Shown in pieces: positions 24,605 to 42,377 of a stretch of DNA of 64,000 nt; the stretch's first letter is position 1; each line of letters starts with the position of its first letter. The position numbers were made by a program, and so were the translations under genes. A model generated the notes under the pieces. That model did no database searches. It saw only the letters and a list, made by a program, of their open reading frames with translations, and was not told where the DNA came from. Origin of the DNA: Escherichia phage LinBro; the sequence record OR896830.1; one strand, written 5' to 3'.

Positions 24605-25804
24605 ATGAACAAAGTACAGATTATTAAAAAGAATGGCTCACTTGAAGAACCCGATATCAAAAAAGTTTTAGCAGCAGTAACTAAGTCAGCTAACAGGGTT
24701 GGATATAAAGAACTTCCACCAGATGTTACCCAAGCTCTTGAGTCAGCATTTATGAGGATTCTGGTAAAGTCCACTAAGCAGAATAATTTGCTCATCTCGG
24801 TAAATGATATTCACAGTATTGTTGAGGGTGCTTTGGCAGAAGTCAATCACGAGATTTATGAGTCTTACTCAACATATAGAAATTACCGTAAAGAGGTTGC
24901 TCAAAATTGGGACGAGCTTTACCAAAAGACTAGGGATACACTCTTCTTAGGTGACCGTGAAAATGCTAACTTTGACAGTAGTTTAATTTCTACAAAAGGC
25001 TCAATTATTCGTGGTTACTTGACTAAAGAAATCTTTAAACAGTACCATTTAACACCAGAGGAACTTGAAGCCATTGAAAAAGGGTTTATCTACATCCATG
25101 ACTTAAGAGACCTAATTTTTGGTGGTATCAACTGTTGCCTGTTTGACATCGGCAAAGTACTGAAAGGTGGCTTTGAAATGTCTGGTATCGAATACTGTGA
25201 ACCAAAGTCTGTGCTGTCAGCCTTACAGGTTATTGGTGATGTAGTTCTTTCAGCAACTGCACAGCAATTTGGTGGCTTTACTTTAGCAGAGATTGATAAG
25301 GTACTTGTGCCGTATGCTAAAAAATCTTTAGTGTACCACTCAGAGAAAGCTGAAGAGTACGGAATCCCTAAAGAGCAACACTATAATTACGTAATGGAGC
25401 AATTACAGAATGAGTTAACACAAGGTTTCCAATCTCTTGAAATGAAACTCAACACTGTTCCTTGCAGTCGCGGTGATTTTGCATTTACTACTCTGACATT
25501 TGGCCTGTTGGAACCAGATATGCACAATGAAGATAACCGTCTTCAGTTTATGATTGCTAATACAATCCTTAATGTAAGGATGAACGGGCAAGGGAAAAGC
25601 AAAAAACCTGTTGTTTTTCCTAAACTTGTGTATATCTATGAAGAGACAAGACATAAACTTGATGTATGCCAAGCAAGGTTGTTTGAAAAAGCTATTGAGT
25701 GTTGCTCTAAAGCGATGTATCCAGATTTCTTAAGTGTATCTGGTCATGGTGCTGTAGCAGATGCTTTTGAGCGTTCTGGTAAGGTGATTTCACCGATGGG
25801 TTAA
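24605..25804 (+). CDS. nrdD: anaerobic ribonucleotide reductase, N-terminal segment
   Basis: ATP-cone-like N-terminus; ORF terminates without the Zn ribbon and glycyl-radical region, which resume downstream. Confidence 0.8.
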   Translation: MNKVQIIKKNGSLEEPDIKKVLAAVTKSANRVGYKELPPDVTQALESAFMRILVKSTKQNNLLISVNDIHSIVEGALAEVNHEIYESYSTYRNYRKEVAQNWDELYQKTRDTLFLGDRENANFDSSLISTKGSIIRGYLTKEIFKQYHLTPEELEAIEKGFIYIHDLRDLIFGGINCCLFDIGKVLKGGFEMSGIEYCEPKSVLSALQVIGDVVLSATAQQFGGFTLAEIDKVLVPYAKKSLVYHSEKAEEYGIPKEQHYNYVMEQLQNELTQGFQSLEMKLNTVPCSRGDFAFTTLTFGLLEPDMHNEDNRLQFMIANTILNVRMNGQGKSKKPVVFPKLVYIYEETRHKLDVCQARLFEKAIECCSKAMYPDFLSVSGHGAVADAFERSGKVISPMG

Positions 25805-26522
25805 CAAGCTCTATAGCTCATCTAAAACGTGCCTAAACAGGGAAACTCTACAGATGTAGACAATCCTGTGCTAAATGATGTACGATGTAAGAAACTATAC
25901 AACATAGGAGTCTTACATGCCAAACTATCACGTCACTGAAGATGGAAAAGTCTTTAGGGAAAATGGTGTAGAGCTTACGCAGTGGAAATCCAACACTGGG
26001 TATATGAAAGTGAGGTTTTACGGTAAGAAGAATCGTGACATGTATGTCCACAGGTTAGTTGCTGAGAAATATGTACCTAACCCGAACAATCTTCCAATTG
26101 TAAAACATAAGGACGATAACAAACTAAATAACCACGTATCTAACTTAGAATGGGGTACTCATTCTGATAATGCTAAAGAAGGTTATGAGAATGGATGTTA
26201 CAAGTTCCACAAGCGTTCATATGCCGTGAAAGCCACACACAAAGTGACAAAGGAAGTTATTGTTACTAAGTCAATACGAGAGTTATCCAATATACTTGGA
26301 TACAATCGCAAGACCATCTCTTCAATATTGAAGGGTGTAAAAGAGCATAATAACTTCGAATATGAGTTTGAATACATCTAAATGCCGAACGACTAACCGT
26401 GATGAATGTAGCGGTGTAGGGTCAAGCGACTCGAAATGGTACGCTACTTAGAAATAAGTAGAAGATATAGTCTGGACTTACTGGCGACAGTAAGCAGCTT
26501 GAATAAAGCGGGGTAAGCTTAG
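25790..26522 (+). mobile_element. intervening sequence in nrdD (group I intron-like) carrying HNH endonuclease
   Basis: Splits nrdD between two ORFs; downstream frame open from 26523; HNH ORF inside; boundaries approximate. Confidence 0.55.
25917..26381 (+). CDS. HNH homing endonuclease
   Basis: VHRLVAE...VKHKDDNKLNNHVSNLEWGTHSDN HNH_3-type motif. Confidence 0.75.
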   Translation: MPNYHVTEDGKVFRENGVELTQWKSNTGYMKVRFYGKKNRDMYVHRLVAEKYVPNPNNLPIVKHKDDNKLNNHVSNLEWGTHSDNAKEGYENGCYKFHKRSYAVKATHKVTKEVIVTKSIRELSNILGYNRKTISSILKGVKEHNNFEYEFEYI

Positions 26523-27491
26523 CGAACTTACCTGAACAATAAGTGTAGAGCATTTTTATCACCATACCATAACGAATATGGTGAAGAGTTTTATGTAGGT
26601 CGTGCTAACATTGGTGCTGTATCTTTGAACTTACCAATGATTTACCAGTATTCTAAAGAGAATGGTTTAGATTTCTGGAAAGAGCTTGATAAGTACCTAG
26701 AGATGATTCGCAGCTTCCACAAGAAACGCTACGAAATGATTGCTAATATGCCAGCAAGCTCTAACCCTCTTGCATTCACACAAGGTGGCCTGTACAAAGG
26801 GACTAAGAAATCTACCGACAAGGTTGGCTGGGATATCGTGAAGTCCTTCACAGCTTCTTTTGGAGTTACTGCGCTTGATGAGCTATCTGTTCTTGCTGAA
26901 GGTAAACGACTTCATGAAGTTGGGAGCTATAGTTTTGCATACGATGTTCTGGCATACATCAACATGAAAACTGAAGAGTTTAAAAATGAAGATGGCTTCT
27001 TATATGCTGTCTATGGTACTCCAGCAGAATCACTTTGTGGAACTCAACTAAAACAGTTCAGAGAAATGTTTGGTGTTATCAAAGGTGTTTCTGACAAGGA
27101 ATACTTTACAAACAGTTTCCATATGAATGTTGCAGCAGACATCTCACCATTTGAGAAGCAGGACTTAGAAGAGCCATTCTTCCATATCTGTAGAGGTGGC
27201 AGAATCCAGTATGTCAGGGTAGCTAACCCAGAAAACTTAACAGCACTTAAGAGTTGTATTACAAGAGGGATGTTGAAAGGTTTTTATCAGGGACTTAACT
27301 TTGACCTAGCAATTTGTGAGCATTGTGGTAGCAGACCAAAGGCTGATGTTGAAGAATGTGAGGTTTGCCATTCACATGACATCTCTGTGATTAACAGGGT
27401 GTGCGGATATCTGGGATGGACTAAGATTAAAGGTGAATCCCGAATGAATGATGCAAAAATCGCTGAGATTCGTGACAGGATTTCTATGTAA
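26523..27491 (+). CDS. nrdD: anaerobic ribonucleotide reductase, C-terminal segment
   Basis: Zn ribbon CEHCGS...CEVCHS and glycyl-radical-like RVCGYLG near C-terminus; no canonical start, frame open from 26523. Confidence 0.8.
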   Translation, partial: RTYLNNKCRAFLSPYHNEYGEEFYVGRANIGAVSLNLPMIYQYSKENGLDFWKELDKYLEMIRSFHKKRYEMIANMPASSNPLAFTQGGLYKGTKKSTDKVGWDIVKSFTASFGVTALDELSVLAEGKRLHEVGSYSFAYDVLAYINMKTEEFKNEDGFLYAVYGTPAESLCGTQLKQFREMFGVIKGVSDKEYFTNSFHMNVAADISPFEKQDLEEPFFHICRGGRIQYVRVANPENLTALKSCITRGMLKGFYQGLNFDLAICEHCGSRPKADVEECEVCHSHDISVINRVCGYLGWTKIKGESRMNDAKIAEIRDRISM

Positions 27492-27846: not shown

Positions 27847-28238
27847 TTAAGTTGAACCAAAAACAGTTAGAGTGGGTTAAAGACTACACCTCAGAGTGTG
27901 GCTCTTGCGAAAAGAATCACGTAAAATACTCAACATTCCATACAGTCTTCACATTGTACATCAGCGACAATGTTCTAAGCGACTCCGTAGAAGACGGTGT
28001 AGCGTTGCCTAATGAGTTACTTGATAAATTAGCTGTAGTCACTGGAACTTGGTCTGAAGAAGATGGTCATGAATTATCTGATGATGTTGTCTTCTACACC
28101 CTTGAAAACATCATGAATCCAGAGTACATTATGCTAATGACTTGCGCGCAAGACTGTGTTCCATTACAAGACTTTATTAAAGAACACTGTGAAGAGTTTA
28201 TTACTAAACAGGTTCCTTGTGAGGTGGTGTTTGAATGA
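27843..28238 (+). CDS. hypothetical protein
   Basis: 131-aa ORF. Confidence 0.4.
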   Translation: MIKLNQKQLEWVKDYTSECGSCEKNHVKYSTFHTVFTLYISDNVLSDSVEDGVALPNELLDKLAVVTGTWSEEDGHELSDDVVFYTLENIMNPEYIMLMTCAQDCVPLQDFIKEHCEEFITKQVPCEVVFE

Positions 28239-28297
28239 GTAAAACAATTCGAAGAAAAGGTTTAAAGAACATTTATATTTATTGGTGAGGTAACTAG

Positions 28298-28783
28298 ATG
28301 AATTACATGGAGATTAGACCATTTGACACAGCTAATGGTGAAGGGGTTCGTGTAAGCCTCTTCGTAGCTGGCTGTAAACATCACTGTGAAGGCTGCTTTA
28401 ACAGGGAGTCTTGGAAGTTTAATGCTGGTAAAGTATTTACTTATGCAAACCTCTACGGCATCATTAAGTTAATGGATGATGAGGCCATCAGTGGGTTGTC
28501 AATACTTGGTGGGGAGCCTCTGGATGATAGAAACATTCAAGAGGTCACCAACATATGCAAACGTATTAAAACTGTTTATCCAGAAAAGTCTATATGGCTT
28601 TGGACAGGTTTTCAGTTACACGAAAAAATTCACTTAGATGTGATGAAATATGTTGACGTAGTGATTGATGGTAAGTATGATTCATCTAAACCAACAGTTA
28701 AACCTTATCGTGGTTCTGATAACCAAAACCTCTGGAGAAAAGAGTATGGGTGGCAAGGTGATTGTCAATGGCGAGCAGAATGA
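28298..28783 (+). CDS. nrdG: anaerobic ribonucleotide reductase activating protein
   Basis: Radical-SAM cluster CKHHCEGCFN near N-terminus; 161 aa. Confidence 0.8.
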   Translation: MNYMEIRPFDTANGEGVRVSLFVAGCKHHCEGCFNRESWKFNAGKVFTYANLYGIIKLMDDEAISGLSILGGEPLDDRNIQEVTNICKRIKTVYPEKSIWLWTGFQLHEKIHLDVMKYVDVVIDGKYDSSKPTVKPYRGSDNQNLWRKEYGWQGDCQWRAE

Positions 28784-29021
28784 TTATTCTGGCAAGTGGA
28801 CTTACGACATCAACAAGTTAGATGCTTGGATGATTTATACAAGAGAAAAATTTGGCGAACGTTCATTATGTGCTCTTGCAACAATGGTGAAGAACGTTGC
28901 CTTTGTCATTCATGAATCAGATAAGTTTGGAGACTTCTACAGGATTCAAAACATTAGAGAAGGTATAACTCCAATCGGTATCACTGAAGAAGAACTCCAT
29001 AAGTTCTGTATTAAACTTTAA
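28745..29021 (+). CDS. hypothetical protein
   Basis: ORF 28665..29021 trimmed to ATG with GGAG RBS; overlaps nrdG 3' end. Confidence 0.3.
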
Positions 29022-29036
29022 TGAGAGAGACTAAAA

Positions 29037-29303
29037 ATGGGAATTTTAGGTAATATGAAAGCTGGCTTCTTGAAGGCACTGGCAAAAGCAGCAGCAATCA
29101 TTTCTATGACTGGAAAGCAGGTTGGTGTAGATGCTTCAGCAATTGCACAGGTTCTTGCAAGCCAAATTGAACAGCAGCCTTACATCCACGTTGGACGTGG
29201 CAAAGGTGGTAAGAAACAAGCACATCGACCAACTGGTGCAGCAGCAATTAAACGTGCAGCTAAAAAAGCTCGTAACCGTAAACGTAATAAGAAGGCTAAA
29301 TAA
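29037..29303 (+). CDS. hypothetical protein with basic C-terminal tail
   Basis: 88 aa ending KKARNRKRNKKAK. Confidence 0.4.
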   Translation: MGILGNMKAGFLKALAKAAAIISMTGKQVGVDASAIAQVLASQIEQQPYIHVGRGKGGKKQAHRPTGAAAIKRAAKKARNRKRNKKAK

Positions 29304-29305
29304 TC

Positions 29306-29626
29306 ATGAGCAAAGTTTATAACACTCGTAAATTACAGATTTTCGTACTGTGCCAGTTTATGGCTAAAGAGTATAACTACTACTACTGTGGTACAGGGTT
29401 CATCAGCGATGATGACGGTTCATACCTACCATTTAAAGAAGCTGTGAAGCTCTTTAATGAAGAGAAAAACTCTAAGAAAGATATTGAAAAGGTTAAGCTA
29501 ACCTACAGCAAGAAAGATAAGAAGATTATCTGCCTAGATAACTTTGTAAAAGTTACTGGAGAAGCAAAAGAGTTTATGGATGAGAGTGAGATTTCATTCA
29601 CAAGCATCTTGAAAGTAGCTCAGTAA
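29306..29626 (+). CDS. hypothetical protein
   Basis: 106-aa ORF. Confidence 0.4.
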   Translation: MSKVYNTRKLQIFVLCQFMAKEYNYYYCGTGFISDDDGSYLPFKEAVKLFNEEKNSKKDIEKVKLTYSKKDKKIICLDNFVKVTGEAKEFMDESEISFTSILKVAQ

Positions 29627-29638
29627 ACAGATACTATA

Positions 29639-29668
29639 AGGGAACTGTAAAGGTTCCCTTTTTATTTT
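29639..29668 (+). terminator. rho-independent terminator
   Basis: GGGAAC...GGTTCCC hairpin then TTTTTATTTT. Confidence 0.65.
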
Positions 29669-29677
29669 GGAGATAAT

Positions 29678-30193
29678 ATGTACCTGTCAAATCTGAAACG
29701 TTCTGCTGCAATGTCAGTGTTAAGACTCAGTTTTGAGGAACGTCAAGAGTTCATTGACTCCCACCAATACGACCCTTCTAACTCCAATCACATGATTCTC
29801 TGGAATCGTGACAGTACTCGTGAAAGAGCACTATTCCGTTACTACCCACATTACACCATAGACAACTTGTATGAATGTTTTGTTGTGAAGAACACCATTA
29901 CAGTACTCAATAAACTTTGCAGATACACAGGTAGTCAATCCTTCACATTAGGCCACCACAAACCCGTTACAAAGGGTGGTGAGCATCACTGTGCAAACTG
30001 GTTTATCCAGACTAAACTTGATAACCAGAAGCAAGGGGATAACCTCCTAAGCACACCTAAGATGACCTATGAAGAGCAAGAGAAATATATCAAAAATAAT
30101 ATGCCAGATGTGCTTGACAACAACTATACAGATTTGGCAATATCTCTCCTGTTGAAGTTCGAGACAGTTTATAGGGCAACTTACAATGGCTAA
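29678..30193 (+). CDS. HNH-like nuclease
   Basis: GHHKPVTKGGEHHCANW...NQKQGDN resembles HNH core. Confidence 0.4.
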   Translation: MYLSNLKRSAAMSVLRLSFEERQEFIDSHQYDPSNSNHMILWNRDSTRERALFRYYPHYTIDNLYECFVVKNTITVLNKLCRYTGSQSFTLGHHKPVTKGGEHHCANWFIQTKLDNQKQGDNLLSTPKMTYEEQEKYIKNNMPDVLDNNYTDLAISLLLKFETVYRATYNG

Positions 30194-30464
30194 AGAGAAG
30201 TGGGAGATTTTACCATTAGTCAGTGAAGGCGGTAATGGTTGTGAAATGTACATGATACGTGGGCATGTTCCAGAACCAATTGCACTTGAGATGGTAAACA
30301 ACTTTACAGATGGCTCTTACAAAGACTTAGGGGAGCCAAATATAAAGCAGCAATGGGTAAAGCCTGTACCAGACAGCACAGGTAACTGTAGTGTACTTTA
30401 TCACGTTGTAGACCCTGCAAAATGCAAATCTGCAATGGCAGTAACAAACGTAACTTTTGATTGA
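30186..30464 (+). CDS. hypothetical protein
   Basis: 92-aa ORF. Confidence 0.4.
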   Translation: MAKEKWEILPLVSEGGNGCEMYMIRGHVPEPIALEMVNNFTDGSYKDLGEPNIKQQWVKPVPDSTGNCSVLYHVVDPAKCKSAMAVTNVTFD

Positions 30465-30475
30465 GAGAGAAAACT

Positions 30476-31357
30476 ATGAAAACTGTTATTGAAGCCGTCG
30501 TCACCGCTCAAGAGAAATTCTTCCACACAGAAAAATTTAATATCATTCAATTCCCATCTGGAGAAATTGGTGGAAACTTCTCTGAAGATTTTGTTAAGTT
30601 TACTGAGCGTAATGCTGGTAAGATTGATAATGTTATAATTACTGTACAGGGATATGACAAAGATACACTGTTTGCATTAGCTTTGGCTAAGGATGCCGTT
30701 GACAGTCTTGTTCCCCAGAAATCAGCGATGAAAACCGTTGTTTTCGGGTTCTTACCAAATGCTCGATATGACCGCCACATGTTCAAAGGTGATGCAGCAG
30801 CACTGAAAGCCTTTGCCAACCTAGTTAATGCAATGGGTTTTGATGCAGTATGTGCTCTTGACCCTCACAGTAATGTTGCAGAAAACTTATTTAAGTGCTT
30901 TCAAAGCATGAAGCAAAAAGATGTGGCAGTACACTTTGCAAGTGACCCACGCATTGATTTCTTGGTAGCCCCAGATGCAGGTGCAGCTAAGAAGACTGAA
31001 GATACCGCTAAAGAGGTGGATAAGCCGTATATCACAATGTCTAAGGTGCGCAATCTTAAGACTGGAGAAATCACTGGTATGCGAATCCTTGACGATGTTG
31101 ATTTGACCGATAAAACTGTCATGATTCTTGATGATATCTGTGATGGTGGTCGAACATTCGTAGAGGCAGCTAAACACCTACGTGAAGCAGGTGCAAAACG
31201 TGTGGAACTCTATGTAACTCATGGTATTTTCTCTAAAGGTGTTGAAAACTTACTTGACAACGGTATTGACCATATCTACACTACAAACACTTTAGGCGAA
31301 GCTAAAGACCGTGGCTTAACACATTATGGTCAAGTTACTGTAGCAAACATTGATTAG
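30476..31357 (+). CDS. ribose-phosphate pyrophosphokinase-like protein (Prs family)
   Basis: PRPP-binding type motif MILDDICDGGRTF; start moved from TTG to first ATG. Confidence 0.65.
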   Translation: MKTVIEAVVTAQEKFFHTEKFNIIQFPSGEIGGNFSEDFVKFTERNAGKIDNVIITVQGYDKDTLFALALAKDAVDSLVPQKSAMKTVVFGFLPNARYDRHMFKGDAAALKAFANLVNAMGFDAVCALDPHSNVAENLFKCFQSMKQKDVAVHFASDPRIDFLVAPDAGAAKKTEDTAKEVDKPYITMSKVRNLKTGEITGMRILDDVDLTDKTVMILDDICDGGRTFVEAAKHLREAGAKRVELYVTHGIFSKGVENLLDNGIDHIYTTNTLGEAKDRGLTHYGQVTVANID

Positions 31358-31365
31358 GTAACAGT

Positions 31366-31857
31366 ATGAATAAGGGTTATTTTGAAAGATACCTAATATA
31401 TGAACCAGATACAGGTTTATTAATTTGGAGAGTAACCCTTTGCAGTACCGCTATTGCTGGTAATGTGGCTGGCACAAGGTCTAAGAAGGGTTATATCCAA
31501 GTCCAGATAAATAAGAAGAGGTACTATGCACATAATATTGCATGGATTATGTCTGGAGGTGAGATACCAAGTGGATATGAGATAGACCACATAGACCTTG
31601 ATAAATCTAATAATAAGTTGGAGAATTTAAGACTTAGCACAAAGTCACAAAATCAGAGGAATAGGGGTATATACAAGAATAATAAAACTGGTGTGAAGGG
31701 TGTAAGTTTTTGTAAACAAACAGGTCTTTACAAAGCAAGAGTCATGCTTTACCATAAAGAATACTTTTGTGGAAGATTTAAAACGGTAGAAGAAGCAAAA
31801 GAAGCTGTAATTAAAAAGCGAATAGAACTTCATGGTGAGTTTGCAAGACATAACTAA
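31366..31857 (+). CDS. HNH homing endonuclease with AP2-like DNA-binding domain
   Basis: YAHNIAW...EIDHIDLDKSNNKLENLRL HNH core then GVKGVSF...GLYKARV AP2-like segment. Confidence 0.8.
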   Translation: MNKGYFERYLIYEPDTGLLIWRVTLCSTAIAGNVAGTRSKKGYIQVQINKKRYYAHNIAWIMSGGEIPSGYEIDHIDLDKSNNKLENLRLSTKSQNQRNRGIYKNNKTGVKGVSFCKQTGLYKARVMLYHKEYFCGRFKTVEEAKEAVIKKRIELHGEFARHN

Positions 31858-31871
31858 GAGAGAGGTAAAAT

Positions 31872-33653
31872 ATGAGTAAGTCACTTTACGCAGTACCAGC
31901 AGGTCTTAATGCAGATGCTTACAAGGCATCACATATATATCAGTATCCAGATGCTACGCAATATCTTATGTTGAACCTGACACCACGTAGTGATAAATGG
32001 TTTAACAGCCCCTTAGCAATTGACGGTGTAGTAGCTTTTGGTATTCAACGTTTCGTTAAAGATTACTTGATAGACCATTGGAATGCTACGTTCTTTGAAC
32101 GTGACAAAAAAGAAGCAATTGACGAAATCTTAGAAGTCATGAATGGTGTTCTGGGCAAAGATGCTATCGGTCGAGAGCATTGGGAGGCACTTCACGACTT
32201 AGGTTATCTACCAGTTGAAGTATACGCTGTAGAAGAAGGCACAGTTGTCCCTATGCGTGTTCCGATGATTGTTTTCCAGAACACTGTTTCAGGTTTCCAT
32301 TGGGTAGCAGGTTATCTGGAAGATGCTTTCTCTGCTGAGATTTGGAAGGCTTGTACCATTGCAACTATTGCATTGCACTACAAACGTATCTGTAAGAAGT
32401 GGGCTGACCTTACTTGTGACAACGACTTGCATTTGCCTTATCAGTGCCATGACTTTGCTATGCGTGGTATGTCCGGCTTTACTGATGACGCATTTAACGC
32501 TGTAGGCCACTTAACCAGCTTTAAAGGAACTGATAGCTTCCCTGCTGTGTATACGGCTAAACGAATCTATGGACAGTCCTACCCAATCTCTGATATTGGT
32601 AGCTCTGTACCAGCCACTGAGCACTCTGTAATGTGTGCAAACATTGCTTGGGAAGGTGGTAATGAGTTGATTGAAGAAGAAAGACGCTTTAAAGGTGAGT
32701 TACAGACCTTCCGTCGTTTCTTAACAGAAACTTACCCAACTGGTATTGCAAGTATTGTTTCAGACACTTATAACTTCTGGAGAACTGTGTCAGAAATCTT
32801 ACCAGCACTTCGTAAAGAAATTATGGAACGTGATGGTAAGCTGGTAATTCGCCCTGACTCTGGAGACCCTGTACATATTGTCACAGGCTATAAAGCAATC
32901 CACTTAGAGTGTGCTAAGAAGGCTTATTATGAGCACCTAAGCAAGCTGGAAGCTAGTGACACAATGTTGAATGCTGTTCTGAACATGAAGCTTGAAAACA
33001 TCAACTATGGTATTGCTGGATGGCTACTGTCAGAAGGCTACGAAATGGTTGTTGACAGAGAAGACTTTGAAGTTGCTGATACAGTGATGTTGAAAAATGC
33101 TTATATGGTTGGCTCTGCAAACGTTGTAACACGTCCTGTAGCAGAGATTGATGGAGCTATTAAGACCCTGTACAACATCTTCGGAGGGACTATTAACTCT
33201 AAAGGGTTTAAGGTACTGGATGAGCACATCGGCCTTATCTATGGTGACTCTATCACGCTGGAACGTGCAAACGAAATCCTGAAGCGTCTGTATGAAATGG
33301 GTTTTGCAAGCTCTAACGTAGTGTTTGGTGTAGGCTCTTACACTTACCAGTACATGACTCGCGACACCTTTGCATTTGCTGTCAAAGCAACTCTTGCAAG
33401 CATTGGTGGTAAAGAGATTATGCTTGCAAAAGACCCTAAAACAGATAGTGGTGTTAAGAAATCTGCCTTTGGTGGTGTAGCACCTATGTGGGATGGTGAT
33501 AAGCTGAAAGCTGTAGATGGCTATGGATTCCAGAGTTTTGCAGATGTACTTGACCACCAAGCTTGTGCTTTACGTTTAGTCTTTAGCGACTCTGAGCAGT
33601 TCGGTTATACAACTCTTGGAGATATTCGAAATAATATTGACAAGCAGCTTTAA
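31872..33653 (+). CDS. nicotinamide phosphoribosyltransferase family protein
   Basis: 593 aa; judged Nampt/NadV-like from overall resemblance, no single diagnostic motif verified. Confidence 0.6.
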   Translation: MSKSLYAVPAGLNADAYKASHIYQYPDATQYLMLNLTPRSDKWFNSPLAIDGVVAFGIQRFVKDYLIDHWNATFFERDKKEAIDEILEVMNGVLGKDAIGREHWEALHDLGYLPVEVYAVEEGTVVPMRVPMIVFQNTVSGFHWVAGYLEDAFSAEIWKACTIATIALHYKRICKKWADLTCDNDLHLPYQCHDFAMRGMSGFTDDAFNAVGHLTSFKGTDSFPAVYTAKRIYGQSYPISDIGSSVPATEHSVMCANIAWEGGNELIEEERRFKGELQTFRRFLTETYPTGIASIVSDTYNFWRTVSEILPALRKEIMERDGKLVIRPDSGDPVHIVTGYKAIHLECAKKAYYEHLSKLEASDTMLNAVLNMKLENINYGIAGWLLSEGYEMVVDREDFEVADTVMLKNAYMVGSANVVTRPVAEIDGAIKTLYNIFGGTINSKGFKVLDEHIGLIYGDSITLERANEILKRLYEMGFASSNVVFGVGSYTYQYMTRDTFAFAVKATLASIGGKEIMLAKDPKTDSGVKKSAFGGVAPMWDGDKLKAVDGYGFQSFADVLDHQACALRLVFSDSEQFGYTTLGDIRNNIDKQL

Positions 33654-33666
33654 AAGTATATGATAA

Positions 33667-33694
33667 GAGGCTCCTACGGGAGCCTTTTTAATTT
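33667..33694 (+). terminator. rho-independent terminator
   Basis: AGGCTCC..GGGAGCCT hairpin then TTTTTAATTT. Confidence 0.65.
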
Positions 33695-33706
33695 CTGGAG
33701 AAGATT

Positions 33707-34042
33707 ATGAAAATCAAAGAAATGAACATTAACGTTGTCCTAGAAGAACGTTGGGAGAACATTAAGAAACCTGAAGATGGTAAAAAGTTCCTTAACAAAA
33801 TTTTAGTAGCAGCTAAAGAAGAACTGACTGGCAAGATTGCAGCAGCAATCACAATAAAAATCTGTGTAAAAGGTCTTCCACAACATCACCAATTTGCACT
33901 TGACGAGTTTAAAGAAAGCTTCTACAATCCAAACAAACAGATGCTTGAAAGTAACTTTGCAGTGTCTACAAGTATCGTCCATGACAGAAGCTTTATCCTT
34001 TACAAGAATATGAGAGGTGAGTCATGCAAGCATATTGGATAG
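33707..34042 (+). CDS. hypothetical protein
   Basis: 111-aa ORF. Confidence 0.4.
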   Translation: MKIKEMNINVVLEERWENIKKPEDGKKFLNKILVAAKEELTGKIAAAITIKICVKGLPQHHQFALDEFKESFYNPNKQMLESNFAVSTSIVHDRSFILYKNMRGESCKHIG

Positions 34043-34200
34043 AAATTTTACTGTCACTTGGTAGTGTAGCAGTATTTGTTTACCTTCTTTGCAAGTACTA
34101 TGCAGAGCACAAGAAGTGTGATTACTGCAACGGGGAAGGGTACACAAGAGCAGGTTGTTGCCCTATTTGTGGTGGTTCTGGTAAAATGTTTAATAAGTAA
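34024..34200 (+). CDS. small membrane protein with Zn-ribbon
   Basis: 58-aa ORF below track cutoff; hydrophobic N-terminus and CDYC...CPICG. Confidence 0.3.
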   Translation: MQAYWIEILLSLGSVAVFVYLLCKYYAEHKKCDYCNGEGYTRAGCCPICGGSGKMFNK

Positions 34201-34228
34201 TTTAACAGTAAACTAAGAGGAAAGTATT

Positions 34229-36595
34229 ATGCGCATGGTAAATGACCACGCAGAAGTGATTAAGAGTTCAACTTCTTTGGAGACATCTCAAGCACAGATT
34301 ACAATGACACCTGAAATGTTCAGCCTTCTGAGTTCTGGTGTATACACATTCAAAGAAAGGGCAGTGATTCGTGAACTGTCATGTAATGCAGTAGATGCTC
34401 AGAAAGAAGCTGGAAAAGAGAACATCCCATTCCATGTGCATTTACCTACTCGATTTGAGCCTTACTTTGAAGTCCGTGACTTTGGAACTGGTTTAACCCA
34501 TGACAAAGTAATGAGTTTGTACCTGAACTATGGGGCTTCTACGAAGAATGACTCTAATGATTACATTGGTGCAATGGGTATCGGCTCAAAATCACCATTT
34601 GCAATTGCTCAGTCATTCACAGTGTCTAGCTATGTTGATGGTGTTGTTAATAAGTACTCTGTTTACCTTGAGAATGGTATACCTCAAGTAACTAAGCTTA
34701 CTACTAACCCAACAAATGAACCCAATGGTTTAGCTGTACGTGTGGCAGTTGCTGACCACCGTATTTCAAAGTTCTTTGAAGAGGCTGGTCATGTATACTC
34801 ATACTTTGCTGTAAAACCAGAAAGTAACATTGTATATGATGATGTGTTAGCAGATATGAACGTCATTGCTCGTGAAGAAGGTGTTTATGATGCCATGATT
34901 CATAAGCAAAGCTGGCGTTCTAGTGGTAACAGGACGGAGTTTAATGTGGTGATGGGTAATATTGCCTATCCAGTGAACATGGAAGCATTACTTGGTGATG
35001 ATTTCTTCAAAGTCTTGCCAGAGTTTTTCCGTAGGAGCGTAGACCTTGTAAACATTTACATGCCTATTGGTTCAGTCGCTATTGCAGCTTCTCGTGAAGC
35101 ATTGCAGATGAATGATACGACAAAAAATGTTATCATTGAGGCTACTAAAAAGATAACTGAAGCAATTACAAAGGATGTTATCAAGAAAGTTAATAGCCAA
35201 CCTACACTCATGGATGCTGCACAGGCTTATGCTGAGTTACGTTTGAACTCACGAGAGATGTTTAATGCTGTGTGTCCAAAGTTAGAGTGGGGAGGCGTTA
35301 AGCTTGATTCTTTGGAAGAAGAATTACTAAACATTCGTCGTGGGATTATCTACGCAGAAGACGGCTCAGTCATTTATGAACGTGACGGCAAAGGTAATAT
35401 TAAGGTTGACAGTAAAGGAAACAACATTCCTAAAGTGGACTACCTATACAATCCAGTTGCTTATGTTAAGTTCAACTCTTTAGAGAGTAAGATTCGTGCA
35501 ACAGCACTTTCCTACACTCAAGAGGCGAGCATGTTCAATATCTTTGGTGCAATGCGTAAAAGCCAAATTGAACAGTTTTTGTTCGTGATTAATGACCGTC
35601 GCAATAAAAACGGTACTGAAAAGACTGTAGGCCGCAATCAGATTCTGCGTGGTGCATGTCGAGACTACGCCAGTGAGTCAAGTCTGTTTCACAGATATAA
35701 TGGTATTGTGTTTGTATTCTCGACTGAAAAAGAGTTAGACGACCTAATCAATCTACACAAACTTGATAAAAGCTTGTTAAAGATTGTGAAAATGTCTGAT
35801 AAGGAGCACCATTACCAGCGCAAAGAAGCTGTAAGGGGTGTTGTAAAACTCTGGAAAGCTGTTCCAGCAGAAGGTGTAGCTTCCTATAAAGAGGTTTCAG
35901 AGGACTTTGATACAATTGAAGAACCTCAGCTTTACATTAAGGCAGTTGGTGACACAGTTGATGGCGAATGTTTTTGCTCATCTCCAGAAGATGTAGCTAA
36001 GTCAGTCGCTAATGTTCTAGGGAAGACAGTCTATGTTTTCCGAAAAGCAAATTGGAAAAAGATACCAGAAGACTGGATTGAAGTAGATGAGAAGCTCTTG
36101 AACGACAGCTTAACTGATGTTCACTGGATTAATCATAACAGGTATATGACACGTATCTATATGAATGGTGTTCTTGACCTTACAAGCAGTTGGATTATCA
36201 CCAGAAACTTTACATTCAATAACAGGAAGATTTCTCGTGGTTATTGCTATTCACGAGATACTAACAAAACTATCTTCCTAGAAGGCAATGAAGATGCTGT
36301 AGAGGCAATGTTCGGTAAAATCCAATACGTTGCTGCACCATTTGCATACACTTATACTGTTAGTGTATTGAAAACTTTGAAAGACTGTCTTGACAATGAT
36401 ACAAAGCTTTACAAGAAAATTAAGAAAGCTGGTGACCGCATGGTCATTAAGGTGACAAACTACCTTTCAAAAAGAAAACAAGAAAACTTCTTGCTTTCTC
36501 ATTTAGATTGGAATAAAGTGTCGCCTATCGAAGTGAGTAAGTTCTTAGGCTTTGATGTGAAGTGTGTTCCAGAAGGGACTACAATTTACGATTAA
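34229..36595 (+). CDS. rIIA: rIIA-like protein (GHKL ATPase fold)
   Basis: N-terminal GHKL N-box RELSCNAVDA and G-rich IGAMGIGSKSPF; 788 aa. Confidence 0.6.
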   Translation: MRMVNDHAEVIKSSTSLETSQAQITMTPEMFSLLSSGVYTFKERAVIRELSCNAVDAQKEAGKENIPFHVHLPTRFEPYFEVRDFGTGLTHDKVMSLYLNYGASTKNDSNDYIGAMGIGSKSPFAIAQSFTVSSYVDGVVNKYSVYLENGIPQVTKLTTNPTNEPNGLAVRVAVADHRISKFFEEAGHVYSYFAVKPESNIVYDDVLADMNVIAREEGVYDAMIHKQSWRSSGNRTEFNVVMGNIAYPVNMEALLGDDFFKVLPEFFRRSVDLVNIYMPIGSVAIAASREALQMNDTTKNVIIEATKKITEAITKDVIKKVNSQPTLMDAAQAYAELRLNSREMFNAVCPKLEWGGVKLDSLEEELLNIRRGIIYAEDGSVIYERDGKGNIKVDSKGNNIPKVDYLYNPVAYVKFNSLESKIRATALSYTQEASMFNIFGAMRKSQIEQFLFVINDRRNKNGTEKTVGRNQILRGACRDYASESSLFHRYNGIVFVFSTEKELDDLINLHKLDKSLLKIVKMSDKEHHYQRKEAVRGVVKLWKAVPAEGVASYKEVSEDFDTIEEPQLYIKAVGDTVDGECFCSSPEDVAKSVANVLGKTVYVFRKANWKKIPEDWIEVDEKLLNDSLTDVHWINHNRYMTRIYMNGVLDLTSSWIITRNFTFNNRKISRGYCYSRDTNKTIFLEGNEDAVEAMFGKIQYVAAPFAYTYTVSVLKTLKDCLDNDTKLYKKIKKAGDRMVIKVTNYLSKRKQENFLLSHLDWNKVSPIEVSKFLGFDVKCVPEGTTIYD

Positions 36596-36600
36596 AGTGT

Positions 36601-36630
36601 TTGACAAGGGGCTTTGAAGCCCCTTAGAAT
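36601..36630 (+). promoter_or_regulatory. sigma70-like promoter with hairpin in spacer
   Basis: TTGACA, 18-bp spacer containing GGGGCTTTGAAGCCCC palindrome, then TAGAAT. Confidence 0.4.
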
Positions 36631-36674
36631 AGCATCACAAAATGATTTATTAACTAACAAGAGAGAGTAATAAG

Positions 36675-37784
36675 ATGACTACTAAAACTAAAGCACAGAT
36701 TGACGCAGAAATTTACAAACTGGTTAAAGAAGGTAAGCTGACTAAAACAGCTATTGCACAGAAATTTAATACTTCAACCCGTTCAGTTGGTCGTGCTGTA
36801 GAGCGTCATGAAGCAACTTTAAAAGGGGATAAGAAGGCAACTTCTACACCAGCTACGAAGACTTTGAAGCAAGTTGCTAAGACATTTAAAAAGAAAGCTG
36901 ACAAACCAGTTGAAAAGGTCGTTAAAGATGCTGTACAGAAAGCTCCGGTAAATAAACTGCATGAAGCTATGCAGAAAGATGACAAGATTGAGTACATGAT
37001 TACTGGTGACTCTGTAATTATGACTTATGGTTCAGAATCTGAAATTGTTGAGTCTACTCATCCGAACTATCAAGAGATTGTAGTTCATGTTGTGAAAGGT
37101 GAGTTCAAAAAAGCCTTTGAATTGATGAACATTCGTAAGTCTATCGAAAACTTCACTCAGGGCGCTATCACAATCAAAGGTGACAAGTTATTCTACGGTG
37201 CTGTTGAGATGCGTTCTACTCTGGTTGACCGTATTCTTCACATGATGAAGACTGGAGATAAAGGTTTCGAACGCCTTGTGATGTTCTTCGAAAAACTGAT
37301 GGAAAACCCATCTAAAGACTCTGTAGAACAACTTTGGGGCTTCGTATCTCACCTTGATGTTGAAATTGATGAAGAAGGCTACATCATTGGTTGGAAGAAA
37401 GTATCTACTCGTGAAGGCAAGCTGGTTGACTCCCACACCTACAGAGTACCTAATGATTTGGGTAACATTGTAGAAATGCCACGTTGGATGGTTGATAATA
37501 ACCGTAACGTGACTTGCTCTCAAGGTCTTCATGTTGGTGCTTGGGATTATGTTCGTTGCTTCTCAGGTGATACAATTCTGAAGGTTCGTGTCCATCCACG
37601 AGACGTTGTATCCGTACCAACTGATTACAACGATATGAAGATGCGCTCGTCTCGTTATGAAGTTGCAGCAATCGTTGATAATCAACGTAAAGTACTGAAA
37701 GCATGGGATGGCAAGACTGAAGCTTTGCATGTCATCGTTGGCACTGCTGGGGAACTTATCTCTCAGCGTAAACGTGAAATCTAA
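36675..37784 (+). CDS. rIIB: rIIB-like protein
   Basis: Directly downstream of rIIA-like gene; LFYGAVEMRSTLVDRIL and VHPRDVVSVPTDYNDMKMR recalled as rIIB-conserved, from memory only. Confidence 0.55.
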   Translation: MTTKTKAQIDAEIYKLVKEGKLTKTAIAQKFNTSTRSVGRAVERHEATLKGDKKATSTPATKTLKQVAKTFKKKADKPVEKVVKDAVQKAPVNKLHEAMQKDDKIEYMITGDSVIMTYGSESEIVESTHPNYQEIVVHVVKGEFKKAFELMNIRKSIENFTQGAITIKGDKLFYGAVEMRSTLVDRILHMMKTGDKGFERLVMFFEKLMENPSKDSVEQLWGFVSHLDVEIDEEGYIIGWKKVSTREGKLVDSHTYRVPNDLGNIVEMPRWMVDNNRNVTCSQGLHVGAWDYVRCFSGDTILKVRVHPRDVVSVPTDYNDMKMRSSRYEVAAIVDNQRKVLKAWDGKTEALHVIVGTAGELISQRKREI

Positions 37785-37797
37785 TAAGTAATTTCTT

Positions 37798-37826
37798 AAA
37801 AGGCTGCTTCGGCGGCCTTTTTTATT
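37798..37826 (+). terminator. rho-independent terminator
   Basis: GGCTGCTTCGGCGGCC hairpin then TTTTTT. Confidence 0.7.
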
Positions 37827-37884
37827 TGTATTTTGTGCAGAGTGCTGTATAATTGTTTTCACGATAAACTAAACAGGAGAACCA

Positions 37885-38433
37885 ATGAAGAAATTGATTC
37901 TAGGTTTGTGCTTAATGTTTACAGCACACTTATCTTATGCAGTTGACTGCCCAGAGCTATCAATTAGCCAAAAAGTAAACATGTTAAAAGCTTACCAGTA
38001 TGGTGAGAATAACATGGGTAAAGGTTGGGGTATCACTCTAGCTGCTATAGCCTTACAAGAGTCAGAGTTAGGTCTGAAGGTAGAGAATAAAAAGACCCAT
38101 GACTATGGTATCTTCCAGAATCACTTGAAGACTGTTGTAAAGCGTAACAAAATTAGTCCTAATGTGGCTAAAAAGAAACTCTTAAAAGACTTTGACTATG
38201 CTGCGAAGGAAACTCACAAAGAGCTTGAGTTTTGGACAAAGGTGCATGGTCAGCCAAAGTCAAAGAAGACTTTACAAAAAGTTTTAGCATCATATAATGC
38301 TGGGTATTCGTACAGAATCCCTAAAGCTAAGAAATATTCTCAAGATGTCTATAACAACATGAAAGTTATTGCTCAATGTGAATTTGCAACAAACATTTCT
38401 AAGGTAAACCATGAAAAAATTAAAAAAGTCTGA
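37885..38433 (+). CDS. secreted protein, possible lytic transglycosylase
   Basis: Signal peptide MKKLILGLCLMFTAHLSYA; ALQESELG...GIFQ resembles SLT-domain ES..G.MQ motif. Confidence 0.4.
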   Translation: MKKLILGLCLMFTAHLSYAVDCPELSISQKVNMLKAYQYGENNMGKGWGITLAAIALQESELGLKVENKKTHDYGIFQNHLKTVVKRNKISPNVAKKKLLKDFDYAAKETHKELEFWTKVHGQPKSKKTLQKVLASYNAGYSYRIPKAKKYSQDVYNNMKVIAQCEFATNISKVNHEKIKKV

Positions 38434-39106
38434 TGAAGTACTGTGTCATGCTTACGACTTACATCCTCATGAGTTAGGTCTTGATTCCTGTGTATGGACT
38501 CCAGAACAGTGTAGGGATTTTGAAGACACTGCAAGAGAAGTTGTATGTTCACTCGAAGAGTTCCACACATCAGAACCAATTGTGAATGTTGTAGATAAAG
38601 AGACTGGACAAACTATAGGTGTAAGTCGTGATAGCTTAGTCATAGTCAATAAAGACCTTGTAGAAAAAGGGAATCTCATCTTAGCAGATATTGATGGTGT
38701 TCTTACAAATTTTAATCACGAAGATTGTTCAACGGAATTGACTGACGGTTCATTCTCGCAGTACACTAATCTTCTTGACTCTGTAAGAGCAAAACCAACG
38801 TATGTTTTCAATATCATTGATGCAATTGCTAATCATGCTGCTGTTGGACTCTTGACAGCGAGAGGTGAATCTCAGAGAATACCTACTGAGATGTTTTTAA
38901 GGCATAACACAGAGCATGACTACATGCTTTTTATGCGTGGTTTTGGGACTAACTCTATAAGCGCAGAAAGTTTGAAAGTGAGGATGATTCAGTCTTGCAT
39001 TCTGCCTTACTTTAATATAGTATGTTTTATAGAAGACACAGAGAAGAATGTGCAGAAGGTGAACAGAATCCTTCCACACATTAAAACCATGTTAGTTAAA
39101 CATTGA
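38411..39106 (+). CDS. hypothetical protein
   Basis: 231-aa ORF. Confidence 0.4.
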   Translation: MKKLKKSDEVLCHAYDLHPHELGLDSCVWTPEQCRDFEDTAREVVCSLEEFHTSEPIVNVVDKETGQTIGVSRDSLVIVNKDLVEKGNLILADIDGVLTNFNHEDCSTELTDGSFSQYTNLLDSVRAKPTYVFNIIDAIANHAAVGLLTARGESQRIPTEMFLRHNTEHDYMLFMRGFGTNSISAESLKVRMIQSCILPYFNIVCFIEDTEKNVQKVNRILPHIKTMLVKH

Positions 39107-39116
39107 GAGAAAACTT

Positions 39117-39581
39117 ATGAACAATATCATTACGGTAGCACTGGACGATACGGTAAACAAATCTGCAATAGTTCGTAAAATGATTCAAGGTAACTTTGAA
39201 GGTAAAATTTTTCGTGCTGTTAATGTAAAAGCTGATGGCAGCATTCGTGAATATCGTGCATTATTGAATGTTAAAAAACACGTAAAAGGTGCTGGTTCAA
39301 CGACTGCACACAAAGAAAACCTGATGACTATCTATGATATGGGTAAGGCTTCAGAGTTAGGTGCTGAAGGTATCGTTAAAGAAGGTGCTCCGTATCGCTC
39401 TTTCAATCTGGAAACTACTCTTATGCTTTCCTTTACAAGTGGTTCTAAAACAATCACTTACCTCTTTACTGATGCTGCAACGGTATCTGCTATTAAGGAT
39501 AGCACTGTCAAAGCTGGCGTAGTTGCTGCTGCAAAAGCTTCTTCGATGGCTGCGAATATCCTTGCTAAAGTCCTCGGTTAA
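39117..39581 (+). CDS. hypothetical protein
   Basis: 154-aa ORF. Confidence 0.4.
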   Translation: MNNIITVALDDTVNKSAIVRKMIQGNFEGKIFRAVNVKADGSIREYRALLNVKKHVKGAGSTTAHKENLMTIYDMGKASELGAEGIVKEGAPYRSFNLETTLMLSFTSGSKTITYLFTDAATVSAIKDSTVKAGVVAAAKASSMAANILAKVLG

Positions 39582-39591
39582 GGTTAAGATA

Positions 39592-39620
39592 CAGGCTCCT
39601 TCGGGAGCCTTTTTCATTTT
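39592..39620 (+). terminator. rho-independent terminator
   Basis: GGCTCCTTCGGGAGCC hairpin then TTTTT. Confidence 0.7.
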
Positions 39621-39633
39621 AGGAGATTGTTAA

Positions 39634-39981
39634 ATGACATTTAAAGAGTTCTGTCAAGCTACTTTCATAATTGTTTTCTTAGTTGGGGCAGGTGTCTGGG
39701 GAGGATACTCTTACAGAGACTACCAAGTTGCTGAAACTGAGCTAAACAATCAAAAGCTCATAAGTGTTGCTAAAGATGCTTATCAGGAAGGATTAGTCAC
39801 ACTGAGCACCAATTACAAAAATGATTTGAAAGACGTGCTTGCTAAGAATAAGCACACAAAAGAGGTACTAACATATGAAAAGACTAAGCCAGAGTTTTAT
39901 AATGTTTGTGTTACTGATAATTATGTCAGGGTGTTCAACGAACAAAGTGAGCAGTACATTCAAAAACTCCCAAGTAAGTGA
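39634..39981 (+). CDS. putative inner-membrane spanin (Rz-like)
   Basis: Single N-terminal TM helix then periplasmic region; second ORF embedded in +1 frame. Confidence 0.45.
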   Translation: MTFKEFCQATFIIVFLVGAGVWGGYSYRDYQVAETELNNQKLISVAKDAYQEGLVTLSTNYKNDLKDVLAKNKHTKEVLTYEKTKPEFYNVCVTDNYVRVFNEQSEQYIQKLPSK

Positions 39982-40144
39982 GAGTGATAAGTACACCCAA
40001 GAAGAATCACGGTATATCATCAAAGGCAACACAGGCAGCGATGTAGCAGCAGCCCTTGAGTTCTATCGTGACGGCTTTTACCAGTGCACAATCAAAGCTA
40101 ACAACCTTATTGACATGATTTTATTAGGGAATAAGCAGCAATGA
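39875..40144 (+). CDS. putative outer-membrane lipoprotein spanin (Rz1-like)
   Basis: Lipobox LIIMSGC; overlaps 3' end of preceding ORF in another frame. Confidence 0.45.
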   Translation: MKRLSQSFIMFVLLIIMSGCSTNKVSSTFKNSQVSESDKYTQEESRYIIKGNTGSDVAAALEFYRDGFYQCTIKANNLIDMILLGNKQQ

Positions 40145-40410
40145 CAGAGAATCAAGATACTTTTTACGTAGAAGGGTACTTACTGTTACCACGACCAAAA
40201 GAGACTTATATGCGAATTGATTTCTCACCAACCATTATGGATAATGTGATGTGCCATATCTTTATGCAAGGTGTCACAGCACAGCTTAAACATGTTGGTA
40301 AAGAGTGCAAAATAAAGGTTGACACTCATCCAGAAATCAAAGAGAATCACTACACATGGTTCTTACCAGATTCTAAAGAAATCTTAGCAGTTCTTAAAAC
40401 GAGGAAGTAA
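40141..40410 (+). CDS. hypothetical protein
   Basis: 89-aa ORF. Confidence 0.4.
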   Translation: MTENQDTFYVEGYLLLPRPKETYMRIDFSPTIMDNVMCHIFMQGVTAQLKHVGKECKIKVDTHPEIKENHYTWFLPDSKEILAVLKTRK

Positions 40411-40412
40411 CT

Positions 40413-41134: not shown

Positions 41135-41920
41135 ATGGGTATTGTAAAAATAATCAATGGTGATATCTTTGCCGCATTTGATAAAGGTAAGTTTGACATC
41201 ATCGGTCACGGTTGCAACTGTATGAATTTAATGGGTGCAGGTATCGCTGACAAGATTTCTAAACTTTACCCAAAAGCATATGAGACCGATACAGAAGTTT
41301 ATCTATATGCAGGTGGTATAGGACACAAGCCCTGTGAAAATTTACTAGGCAATTTCTCTGTAGCACGTTTAGAACAAGGCCGTATAGCTAACCTTTACAC
41401 TCAGCTTAAGACTGGTAAAGATGCCCGATACAGTGCTTTAGAATCATCTTTGAAACAGCTTAACAGATACTGTGAAGTTAACCAGTTGAAGAAAGTTGGT
41501 CTACCTATGATTGGTGCAGGTATCGGTGGGCTAGACCCTCAAGCCGTCACAGTTATCATTAATCAGGTGATGAAGAGTGTAGATGTGTATCTGTATGTCT
41601 ATGAAGGAGAGATGTACCACAAGTTACGCTCAGGTTGGAAGAACTACTGTGAACCAGAATACTTTGCAGGTGTAGTAACGTTCACAGACAATACAGTTAC
41701 CCTCTTCAGACGAAGAAAAGGTAAGATACATCAAAGTAACCCTCCGGTTGAAAAGATGTCTCTGAGTAACGCTCTAGTTACCCACCTGTCGAAGAGCAAT
41801 CACAGAATTGCAGTAACATTTGGCAGTGATGCAGATACTTATATCTATGCAAGGACTGATGAGGGTATTGAGTTAATCTTCTCTTCACCAGAGCTTACCT
41901 TCTTAGACGCAAAGAACTAA
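41135..41920 (+). CDS. Macro-domain protein (ADP-ribose binding or hydrolysing)
   Basis: N-terminal IINGDIF...DIIGHGCNC...MGAGIA matches macro-domain GDIT..D.IVNAAN..GGG pattern. Confidence 0.55.
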   Translation: MGIVKIINGDIFAAFDKGKFDIIGHGCNCMNLMGAGIADKISKLYPKAYETDTEVYLYAGGIGHKPCENLLGNFSVARLEQGRIANLYTQLKTGKDARYSALESSLKQLNRYCEVNQLKKVGLPMIGAGIGGLDPQAVTVIINQVMKSVDVYLYVYEGEMYHKLRSGWKNYCEPEYFAGVVTFTDNTVTLFRRRKGKIHQSNPPVEKMSLSNALVTHLSKSNHRIAVTFGSDADTYIYARTDEGIELIFSSPELTFLDAKN

Positions 41921-41990
41921 GAAATTTCGTAGTATATTCACAATAGACTAAGCCTTTCTTATCTGGTAAATTTTTCAGGTAAGGAGGGCT

Positions 41991-42348: not shown

Positions 42349-42377
42349 TTGACTCTTTGAGTATGGTTATCTAATAT
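42349..42377 (+). promoter_or_regulatory. sigma70-like promoter for the small-gene array
   Basis: TTGACT, 17-bp spacer, TAATAT; about 50 bp upstream of first array gene. Confidence 0.6.

Follow-up and report, generated by a model that had tools for sequence, protein, structure and literature searches.

A stretch of 64,000 nucleotides from Escherichia phage LinBro (sequence record OR896830.1; hereafter, the window) carries, at positions 30476 to 33653, a gene for a protein of the phosphoribosyl pyrophosphate (PRPP) synthetase family and a gene for a protein of the nicotinamide phosphoribosyltransferase (Nampt) family, with an HNH endonuclease gene between them. This locus raises the question of whether the two enzymes perform ordinary salvage through PRPP and nicotinamide mononucleotide (NMN), or whether they reconstitute NAD+ as a means of countering bacterial defence, as a preliminary description of this DNA had cautiously proposed; it also raises the question of what kind of gene lies between them. 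From the comparisons presented here, we consider it very probable that this Felixounavirus locus encodes NARP1, a counter-defence module formed by the enzymes Adps and Namat, with a selfish HNH gene placed between the two enzyme genes. The source genome is a Felixounavirus, and NARP1 is an already known system that was discovered in a phage of this same genus.

The Adps and Namat genes

The Adps gene occupies positions 30476..31357 (+ strand) and encodes a protein of 293 aa. Although the listing of open reading frames (ORFs) begins at a TTG at 30461, the ATG at 30476, which follows the sequence GAGAGAG, yields the 293-aa product annotated in all the relatives. This protein matches the Pfam families Pribosyltran (7.6e-12) and Pribosyl_synth (2.4e-10) as well as PHROG 619, 'ribose-phosphate pyrophosphokinase' (6e-99). 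The Namat gene, at 31872..33653 (+ strand), encodes 593 aa with matches to NAPRTase (5.8e-35), NAMPT_N (9e-6) and PHROG 448 (4e-202). Both genes are on one strand, separated by 514 nt, and the sole occupant of this interval is the HNH gene (31366..31857, + strand), which encodes 163 aa with an HNH_3 domain and possibly an AP2 domain. The ORFs, Pfam and PHROG thus agree with the family assignments, the gene order and the start codon at 30476 given in the preliminary description. A search for related phages matched the module in 257 phage records, and the length of the ORFs, the very strong family matches and this conservation exclude that these are chance ORFs.

The closest experimental reference is phage Bas63 (JohannRWettstein), the sole Felixounavirus in the BASEL collection, for which we used the genome MZ501086. 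The window Adps is identical to Bas63 gp79 at 290 of 293 residues (99%), and the window Namat to Bas63 gp80 at 581 of 593 residues (98%). Of the 12 substitutions in Namat, seven fall in the first 34 residues, adjoining the site where the HNH gene is inserted. The two phages share the gene order, the neighbours (orf171 and orf92 upstream, rIIA/rIIB downstream) and the lengths of both enzymes; in contrast, the two genes are separated in Bas63 by a 45-nt spacer with a hairpin, and in the window by the 514-nt spacer that contains the HNH gene. NARP1 was found by deleting genes 79-80 of Bas63 (Osterman et al., 'Phages reconstitute NAD+ to counter bacterial immunity', bioRxiv 10.1101/2024.02.11.579819). 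In that study, the deletion caused approximately 20-fold fewer plaques on hosts carrying SIR2-HerA and a deeper NAD+ depletion, the product ADPR-PP (m/z 720.010) was detected only when wild-type Bas63 and the defence were both present, and the rescue was independent of host pncC or nadR. The Adps of SPbetaL1 was assayed there with ribose-5-phosphate or ADP-ribose (ADPR) plus ATP, and the reactions predicted from Pfam differed from the real ones.

By analogy with this literature on orthologues, the same chemistry and anti-defence phenotype would be expected from the window proteins. A host NADase defence (SIR2-HerA/Nezha, DSR, type I Thoeris, Kongming, SPARSA or similar) would split NAD+ into ADP-ribose and nicotinamide. 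Adps would then move the beta,gamma-pyrophosphate of ATP onto C1'' of the distal ribose of ADP-ribose, forming ADPR-PP, and Namat would join ADPR-PP and nicotinamide with release of pyrophosphate, producing NAD+ directly and without an NMN intermediate.

The sequence search of the PDB with Adps retrieved canonical PRPP synthetase (PRPS) chains only, and the Adps structures reported in PMC13586617 were not among the matches; for this reason, residues were compared against the structurally characterised Adps of ICP1, using the gene from GenBank, whose sequence agrees with every position cited in that work. The key residues described there (ICP1 numbering) are the catalytic lysine of the beta-hairpin (K185), the acceptor residues R87, H121, D161, D212 and D213, and a DDICD-type pyrophosphate (PP) loop (PMC13586617). 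In spite of an overall identity of 32%, ICP1 residues F18, R87, H121, D161 and K185 are conserved as F26, R97, H131, D167 and K190 of the window Adps, the PP loop D212-D213-I214-C215-D216 corresponds to D219-D220-I221-C222-D223, and F221 corresponds to F228. A further trait expected of Adps is the lack of the C-terminal alpha11-alpha12 filament/regulatory module of canonical PRPS; in this respect, as a comparison of length only, the window Adps has 293 aa and the PRPS chains matched in the PDB have 315-326 aa. Two allele classes of Adps were observed among Felixounaviruses, one comprising 51 records with 95-99% protein identity to the window and the other about 200 records with 78-82%. In addition, the nucleotide identity of the 5' half of the gene (30476-31000, compared with VpaE1) drops to 63-79%, while the neighbouring genes are above 90%, which indicates that the Adps locus is mosaic.

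For Namat, the SPbetaL1 Namat structures 9w5w and 9w5x were the top matches in the PDB both by sequence and by fold. In an AlphaFold2 model of the window protein (pLDDT 93.1), the Namat crystal structures matched best (TM 0.95 for 9w5x), followed by NadV and human NAMPT. The HMMER alignment to 9w5w reproduced all the residue identities quoted in the SPbetaL1 Namat paper, which confirmed the register of the numbering. According to this alignment, residues D15, Y17, F195, R198, D221, H251, R327 and D329 correspond to SPbetaL1 D13, Y15, F189, R192, D215, the catalytic His, R306 and D308, and G458-D459 is also present.

The structural study of SPbetaL1 Namat describes a 'selectivity clamp' composed of a helix with the motif GSxΦxΦxΦTRD, in which x is aromatic, and of a variable loop with Arg, Lys or Tyr in third position; when Lys occurs there, the residue that follows stacks on the adenine, as in Bas63. 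Both elements were found in the window. The helix motif G488-S-Y-T-Y-Q-Y-M-T-R-D498 (33333..33365, + strand) fits the published pattern, with aromatic x residues at positions 3 and 7, and the loop residues K42-W43 (31995..32000, + strand), aligned with SPbetaL1 R40-V41, have the Lys-then-stacker layout. The corresponding helix reads GSFTYQYNTRD in SPbetaL1, GAQTYQRNTRD in HdNadV and GGALLQKVDRD in Xcc Nampt, so that the canonical NadV/Nampt structures in the alignment, HdNadV and Xcc Nampt, lack the aromatic clamp motif. Taken together, the window proteins resemble SPbetaL1 Namat and ICP1 Adps in fold, catalytic residues, clamp motif, catalytic Lys and PP-loop Asp residues, and as judged in silico the pair is a NARP1 module by every feature that can be tested in this way. 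A clustering with canonical Prs/NadV enzymes, which the preliminary description named as the outcome that would overturn its proposal, was not seen.

The window Namat differs from its SPbetaL1 counterpart (approximately 47% identity) in the Lys-Trp loop, present instead of Arg, in a 15-residue insertion and in an additional subdomain. Compared with that of SPbetaL1, the Felixounavirus Namat has about 100 extra residues, most of them in a stretch of about 88 (aa ~340-427; 32889..33152, + strand) that follows the RPDSGDP strand and that the alignment and the model place as a lineage-specific insertion in a surface loop. This segment is restricted to Ounavirinae-type phages (253 records) and is confidently predicted to form a small alpha/beta subdomain. 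A structural neighbour search with the model of this subdomain gave no significant match, and no discussion of it was found in the literature searched for it. Other members of the Namat family have unrelated insertions of 22-105 residues in the same loop.

Two further observations concern Namat homologues. In ekra, the nearest nucleotide relative of the window, a 1-nt indel occurs near Namat codon 23 (approximately window 31872-31975), and the protein is annotated at 561 aa, without the N-terminal D15, Y17 and K42-W43; this indel reflects either an error in sequencing or a function that was naturally lost. On the other hand, the chromosomes of Klebsiella, Cronobacter, Kosakonia and Phytobacter encode many proteins of ~496 aa that share 46-48% identity with the window Namat, and in the few that were aligned G488, S489, Y492 and T496-R497-D498, that is, most of the clamp motif, are invariant. 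From their sequences, these enterobacterial homologues may represent NARP1-type enzymes of bacteria, of which Paenibacillus provides a reported case.

The HNH gene in the Adps-Namat spacer

The preliminary description regarded the gene at 31366-31857 as a free-standing HNH-AP2 homing endonuclease. The HNH assignment is clear, with a full-length match to Pfam HNH_3 (1.7e-19) and to PHROG 99, 'HNH endonuclease' (3e-68). The AP2 part of the proposal has weak support, given that this domain scored 20.9 bits (E 4.5e-4), below the Pfam cut-off of 33.3 bits. A PDB sequence search with the protein gave nothing at E<=1, and a search across the window for a second copy of the gene found none.

The homing part of the proposal is supported by the distribution of the gene and by the pattern of its flanks. 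The HNH gene is present in 61 of the 257 related phage records (about a quarter), and it is 100% identical among phages whose flanks are approximately 93% identical to the window. We aligned the window with tootiki and Bas63, which lack the HNH gene, and with VpaE1, which has it, and followed the informative sites. Between 30055 and 31289 the window is of the tootiki type at 199 of 201 sites, the two remaining sites being one of the VpaE1 type and one of neither type. From 31297 to 31880 it is of the VpaE1 type at all sites except 31865 (neither), and by 31973 it is again of the tootiki type. The feature at 31297..31880 (+ strand) thus comprises the HNH cassette and short co-converted flanks of a VpaE1-like donor in a background of the tootiki/Bas63 type, and a short donor-type tract around the cassette is what homing with limited co-conversion is expected to look like.

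A comparison of the insertion site in 12 genomes, six with and six without the HNH gene, gave a consistent picture. All six genomes with the gene share one insertion point, a TAG stop codon for Adps and a spacer of 514-517 nt. In all six genomes without it, the spacer has 45-46 nt and contains the hairpin GGGGCTT(G/A)AAAGCCCC followed by (A/C)TTT, which is deleted in all the genomes sampled that have the HNH gene. In Bas63, this native spacer of 45 nt corresponds to positions 16528-16572 of the compared sequence. This hairpin may act in attenuation or in stabilising the RNA. Over the first ~110 nt of Namat, the six genomes with the HNH gene share one haplotype and four of the six without it have another, and the window keeps the GAGAGAG that serves Namat as ribosome-binding site.

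As judged from these sequence features, the gene at 31366-31857 is a selfish free-standing homing endonuclease. It resembles other phage endonucleases of this kind in its HNH_3 domain, its small intergenic ORF with its own start, its presence/absence polymorphism and its co-conversion tract, and it differs from those with or without AP2 in its subthreshold AP2 match and in having no relative of solved structure by sequence. The gene would have entered the Adps-Namat spacer and displaced the small hairpin, with no damage to either enzyme ORF or to the ribosome-binding site of Namat. The insertion is already annotated in GenBank records, for example that of FelixO1; a term search of the NARP1 preprint found no mention of it (bioRxiv 10.1101/2024.02.11.579819).

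Competing explanations for the locus

Several points weigh against the assignment to NARP1. The in vitro enzymology comes from the SPbetaL1, ICP1, DyoEdafos and Paenibacillus homologues and not from the Bas63 proteins, and the homologues studied biochemically are 32-47% identical to those of the window. The ICP1 Adps aromatics F92 and F223 are replaced in the window by M102 and E230, and the third Φ of the Namat clamp motif is an atypical Met, where Asn or Val is usual. In vitro, Namat also forms NMN from PRPP at about half the rate of human Nampt; some classical salvage activity is therefore conceivable. This last property would fit a purely classical pathway, in which a phage PRPP synthetase and NadV make PRPP and then NMN, and host NadR/PncC complete NAD+, boosting nucleotide metabolism; the names in Pfam, PHROG and GenBank all agree with such a pathway, and the NadV of Haemophilus ducreyi is also highly similar overall (1.4e-105). 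However, the Bas63 proteins, which are 98-99% identical, rescue without host pncC or nadR, ADPR-PP was detected in infected cells, and the study of SPbetaL1 Adps states that the reactions predicted from Pfam are not those performed. The comparison with NARP2 (NadV plus Nmnat, Vibrio phage KVP40) and with canonical HdNadV (9ke8), Xcc Nampt (7yqo) and human NAMPT points in the same direction: they share the Nampt fold and the catalytic core for nicotinamide and ribose-phosphate, but lack the aromatic clamp residues that select ADPR-PP, and the partner in NARP2 is an NMN adenylyltransferase and not a Prs-like kinase as in the window. The annotation of the syntenic 50 kb of Bas63 contains no NMN adenylyltransferase, although the window itself received no exhaustive Nmnat scan. 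On this balance, we regard classical salvage as a very improbable account of the pair, and the choice of the preliminary description for NAD+ reconstitution over salvage is upheld.

The remaining explanations accept the enzyme pair as NARP1 and differ in the part they give to the HNH gene. The insertion could uncouple or silence the module, through polarity on Namat or through the loss of the spacer hairpin, so that the pair would be present but ineffective as a counter-defence. In favor of this, the phage that was tested, Bas63, has the 45-nt spacer and lacks the 514-nt HNH insertion, so that the expression of Namat in its presence is presumed; the conserved hairpin is lost wherever the HNH gene was sampled, and ekra, which has the HNH gene, carries the frameshift near the start of Namat. 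Nevertheless, in the window both enzyme ORFs are intact, the GAGAGAG before Namat is retained, all the genes point the same way, and the interval from Adps to Namat contains no strong terminator-like site but a single weak match inside the HNH gene (31524-31545). Moreover, the layout with the HNH gene occurs in ~61 records, including FelixO1, and a full-length Namat of 593 aa is annotated in four of the five other HNH-containing genomes sampled, ekra being the exception; we therefore give silencing little credence. Even harder to sustain is the idea that the HNH-AP2 protein was recruited as a part of NARP1, as a nuclease or a DNA-binding regulator, in analogy with the Macro- and RyR-domain genes found elsewhere. 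True accessory enzymes do occur in the Adps-Namat interval of other phages (Adpp in Gary and Skimmer), and the NARP1 locus of DyoEdafos includes RyDEP. In this case, however, about three quarters of the close relatives, including Bas63 with its functional module, lack the gene, which is far more conserved than its flanks and lies inside a recombination tract, as is the signature of homing; furthermore, selfish genes for HNH_3 endonucleases abound in these phages, and a second one splits nrdD in the window. The reading that we retain is a NARP1 module interrupted by a selfish gene.

A distal Macro protein, the neighbouring genes and their significance

The preliminary description also suggested that a Macro-domain protein encoded at 41135 could act on related ADP-ribose products. 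A 2026 preprint reports that defences with a RES domain (aRES) cut NAD+ to ADPR-1''-phosphate, which NARP1 cannot use, and that some phages have added to the operon a Macro phosphatase, Adpp, giving NARP1-AP, as demonstrated for Vibrio phage Gary (gp137); the census in that preprint considered only genes within two positions of NARP1. In the window protein (41135..41920, + strand; 261 aa), which we consider a candidate accessory enzyme, an Adpp-like Macro domain spans aa 1-~157 (Pfam Macro 1.2e-7, exceeding the cut-off), and about 100 further residues extend the C-terminus. The protein shares 97% identity with bas63_0095, a 'putative phosphatase'. Against the Adpp of Vibrio phages, the identity of its Macro domain is 27-28%, with pairwise E values of 2e-13 for Gary (27% over ~155 aa) and 4e-15 for Skimmer. 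It retains HxCNC, MGxGIA and GLPxIGxG, the conserved motifs of the ligand loops, and its PDB profile is that of Gary Adpp, with OARD1/TARG1 as the best match and Poa1p as a weak one. Pfam gave no match for the C-terminal extension (41606-41920, aa ~158-261), and the Adpp of Gary and Skimmer, with 158 aa, lacks this part.

Unlike the Gary arrangement (Adps-Adpp-Namat), the window Macro gene is distal, since 7,482 nt, 13 genes and three terminator-like sites separate its start from the Namat stop codon; it belongs to another terminator-bounded unit and lies outside the two-gene limit used for NARP1-AP. In Pakpunavirus PA10 (Adps-orf-Namat-orf-Macro), a member of the same Macro family is located two genes from Namat. 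Over 2,200 phage records contain the family, T4-type phages among them, and it appears to be widespread where NARP1 is lacking; the Tk.4 Macro proteins of T4-type phages are closer to the window protein (33-36% identity). NARP1 is not known from T4-type phages.

A possible, although rather doubtful, interpretation is that Felixounaviruses have a 'split' NARP1-AP, in which the distal Macro protein is an Adpp-type ADPR-1''-phosphate phosphatase that feeds ADPR to NARP1. In such a scheme, the ADPR-1''-phosphate produced by an aRES-type NAD+ phosphorylase would be converted to ADPR by the Macro protein and then to NAD+ by NARP1. The Macro domain envisaged by the preliminary description is real and has a precedent in NARP1-AP, while its connection with the pathway in this phage stays conjectural. 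If the split arrangement were true, the published census would have missed whole lineages, including that of Bas63. The C-terminal ~100 residues of the Macro protein and the ~88-residue subdomain of the Ounavirinae Namat could be lineage-specific adaptations of the pathway.

A role as a de-ADP-ribosylase of the TARG1/DarG type was considered and set aside. The positions of TARG1 K84 and D125, which we take to be the catalytic residues, are not occupied by Lys and Asp in the window, and this is weak evidence; in the alignment, the position of D125 is Ala in Gary Adpp.

Regarding the surroundings of the module, Felix O1-like phages (ekra, FelixO1, VpaE1, BPS15Q2 and others) match the region at 93-97% nucleotide identity. 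Directly 5' of Adps lies orf92 (30186..30464, + strand; PHROG 4726, 2e-60; orthologue of bas63_0078), preceded by orf171 (29678..30193, + strand; PHROG 3500, 5e-92; orthologue of bas63_0077), the first gene of the putative unit. The latter contains the HNH-like motif HHKPVTKGGEHHCANW...N and gives a weak match to an HNH PHROG (2e-4), so from its sequence it may be a degenerate or divergent nuclease; its homologues are also present in Erwinia phages and in phi92-like phages of ~148 kb. We considered orf171 and orf92 as parts of NARP1 and kept them merely as putative co-transcribed neighbours to which no function is assignable. A consensus scan, which detects pattern matches only, placed a terminator-like hairpin with a 9-bp stem and a T-run at 29638..29660 (+ strand), the probable upstream limit of the transcription unit, and another with a 10-bp stem and a T-run just 3' of Namat (33665..33688, + strand). 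These two hairpins suggest a five-gene unit composed of orf171, orf92, Adps, HNH and Namat. Promoter-like matches in 28000-42500 (48 versus 37 +/- 6 in shuffled sequences) were barely above expectation and were not used.

Downstream of the module are rIIA/rIIB, directly adjacent, and upstream are nrdD/nrdG. The nrdD gene is divided into two ORFs (24605-25804 and 26625-27491) separated by ~820 nt that hold the second HNH_3 endonuclease ORF (25917-26381), which is unrelated to the first; the Bas63 annotation presents nrdD as a two-piece join. An Rfam scan at gathering thresholds over 20000-45000, directed at an intron or RNA element around either HNH gene, gave no match. Finally, 26 tRNA genes are arrayed on the + strand at 58665-63571, as is typical for Felix O1-like phages.

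These results indicate that a recently described counter-defence pathway can be recognised from raw sequence despite the database names, given that 'ribose-phosphate pyrophosphokinase' and 'nicotinamide phosphoribosyltransferase' are misleading for Adps and Namat. The biological gain is small, because NARP1 was discovered in the same genus and the genes are 98-99% identical. Distal Macro phosphatases may nonetheless escape the operon-proximity rules used to find NARP1 accessory genes. The Adps-Namat spacer appears as a recurrent insertion slot, occupied by an HNH gene here and by a Macro phosphatase in Gary and Skimmer, with RyDEP found within the NARP1 locus of DyoEdafos. With the HNH gene at this site in about a quarter of the Felix O1-like records, and with the recombination tract mapped, these phages offer a natural system to study homing beside an anti-defence operon.

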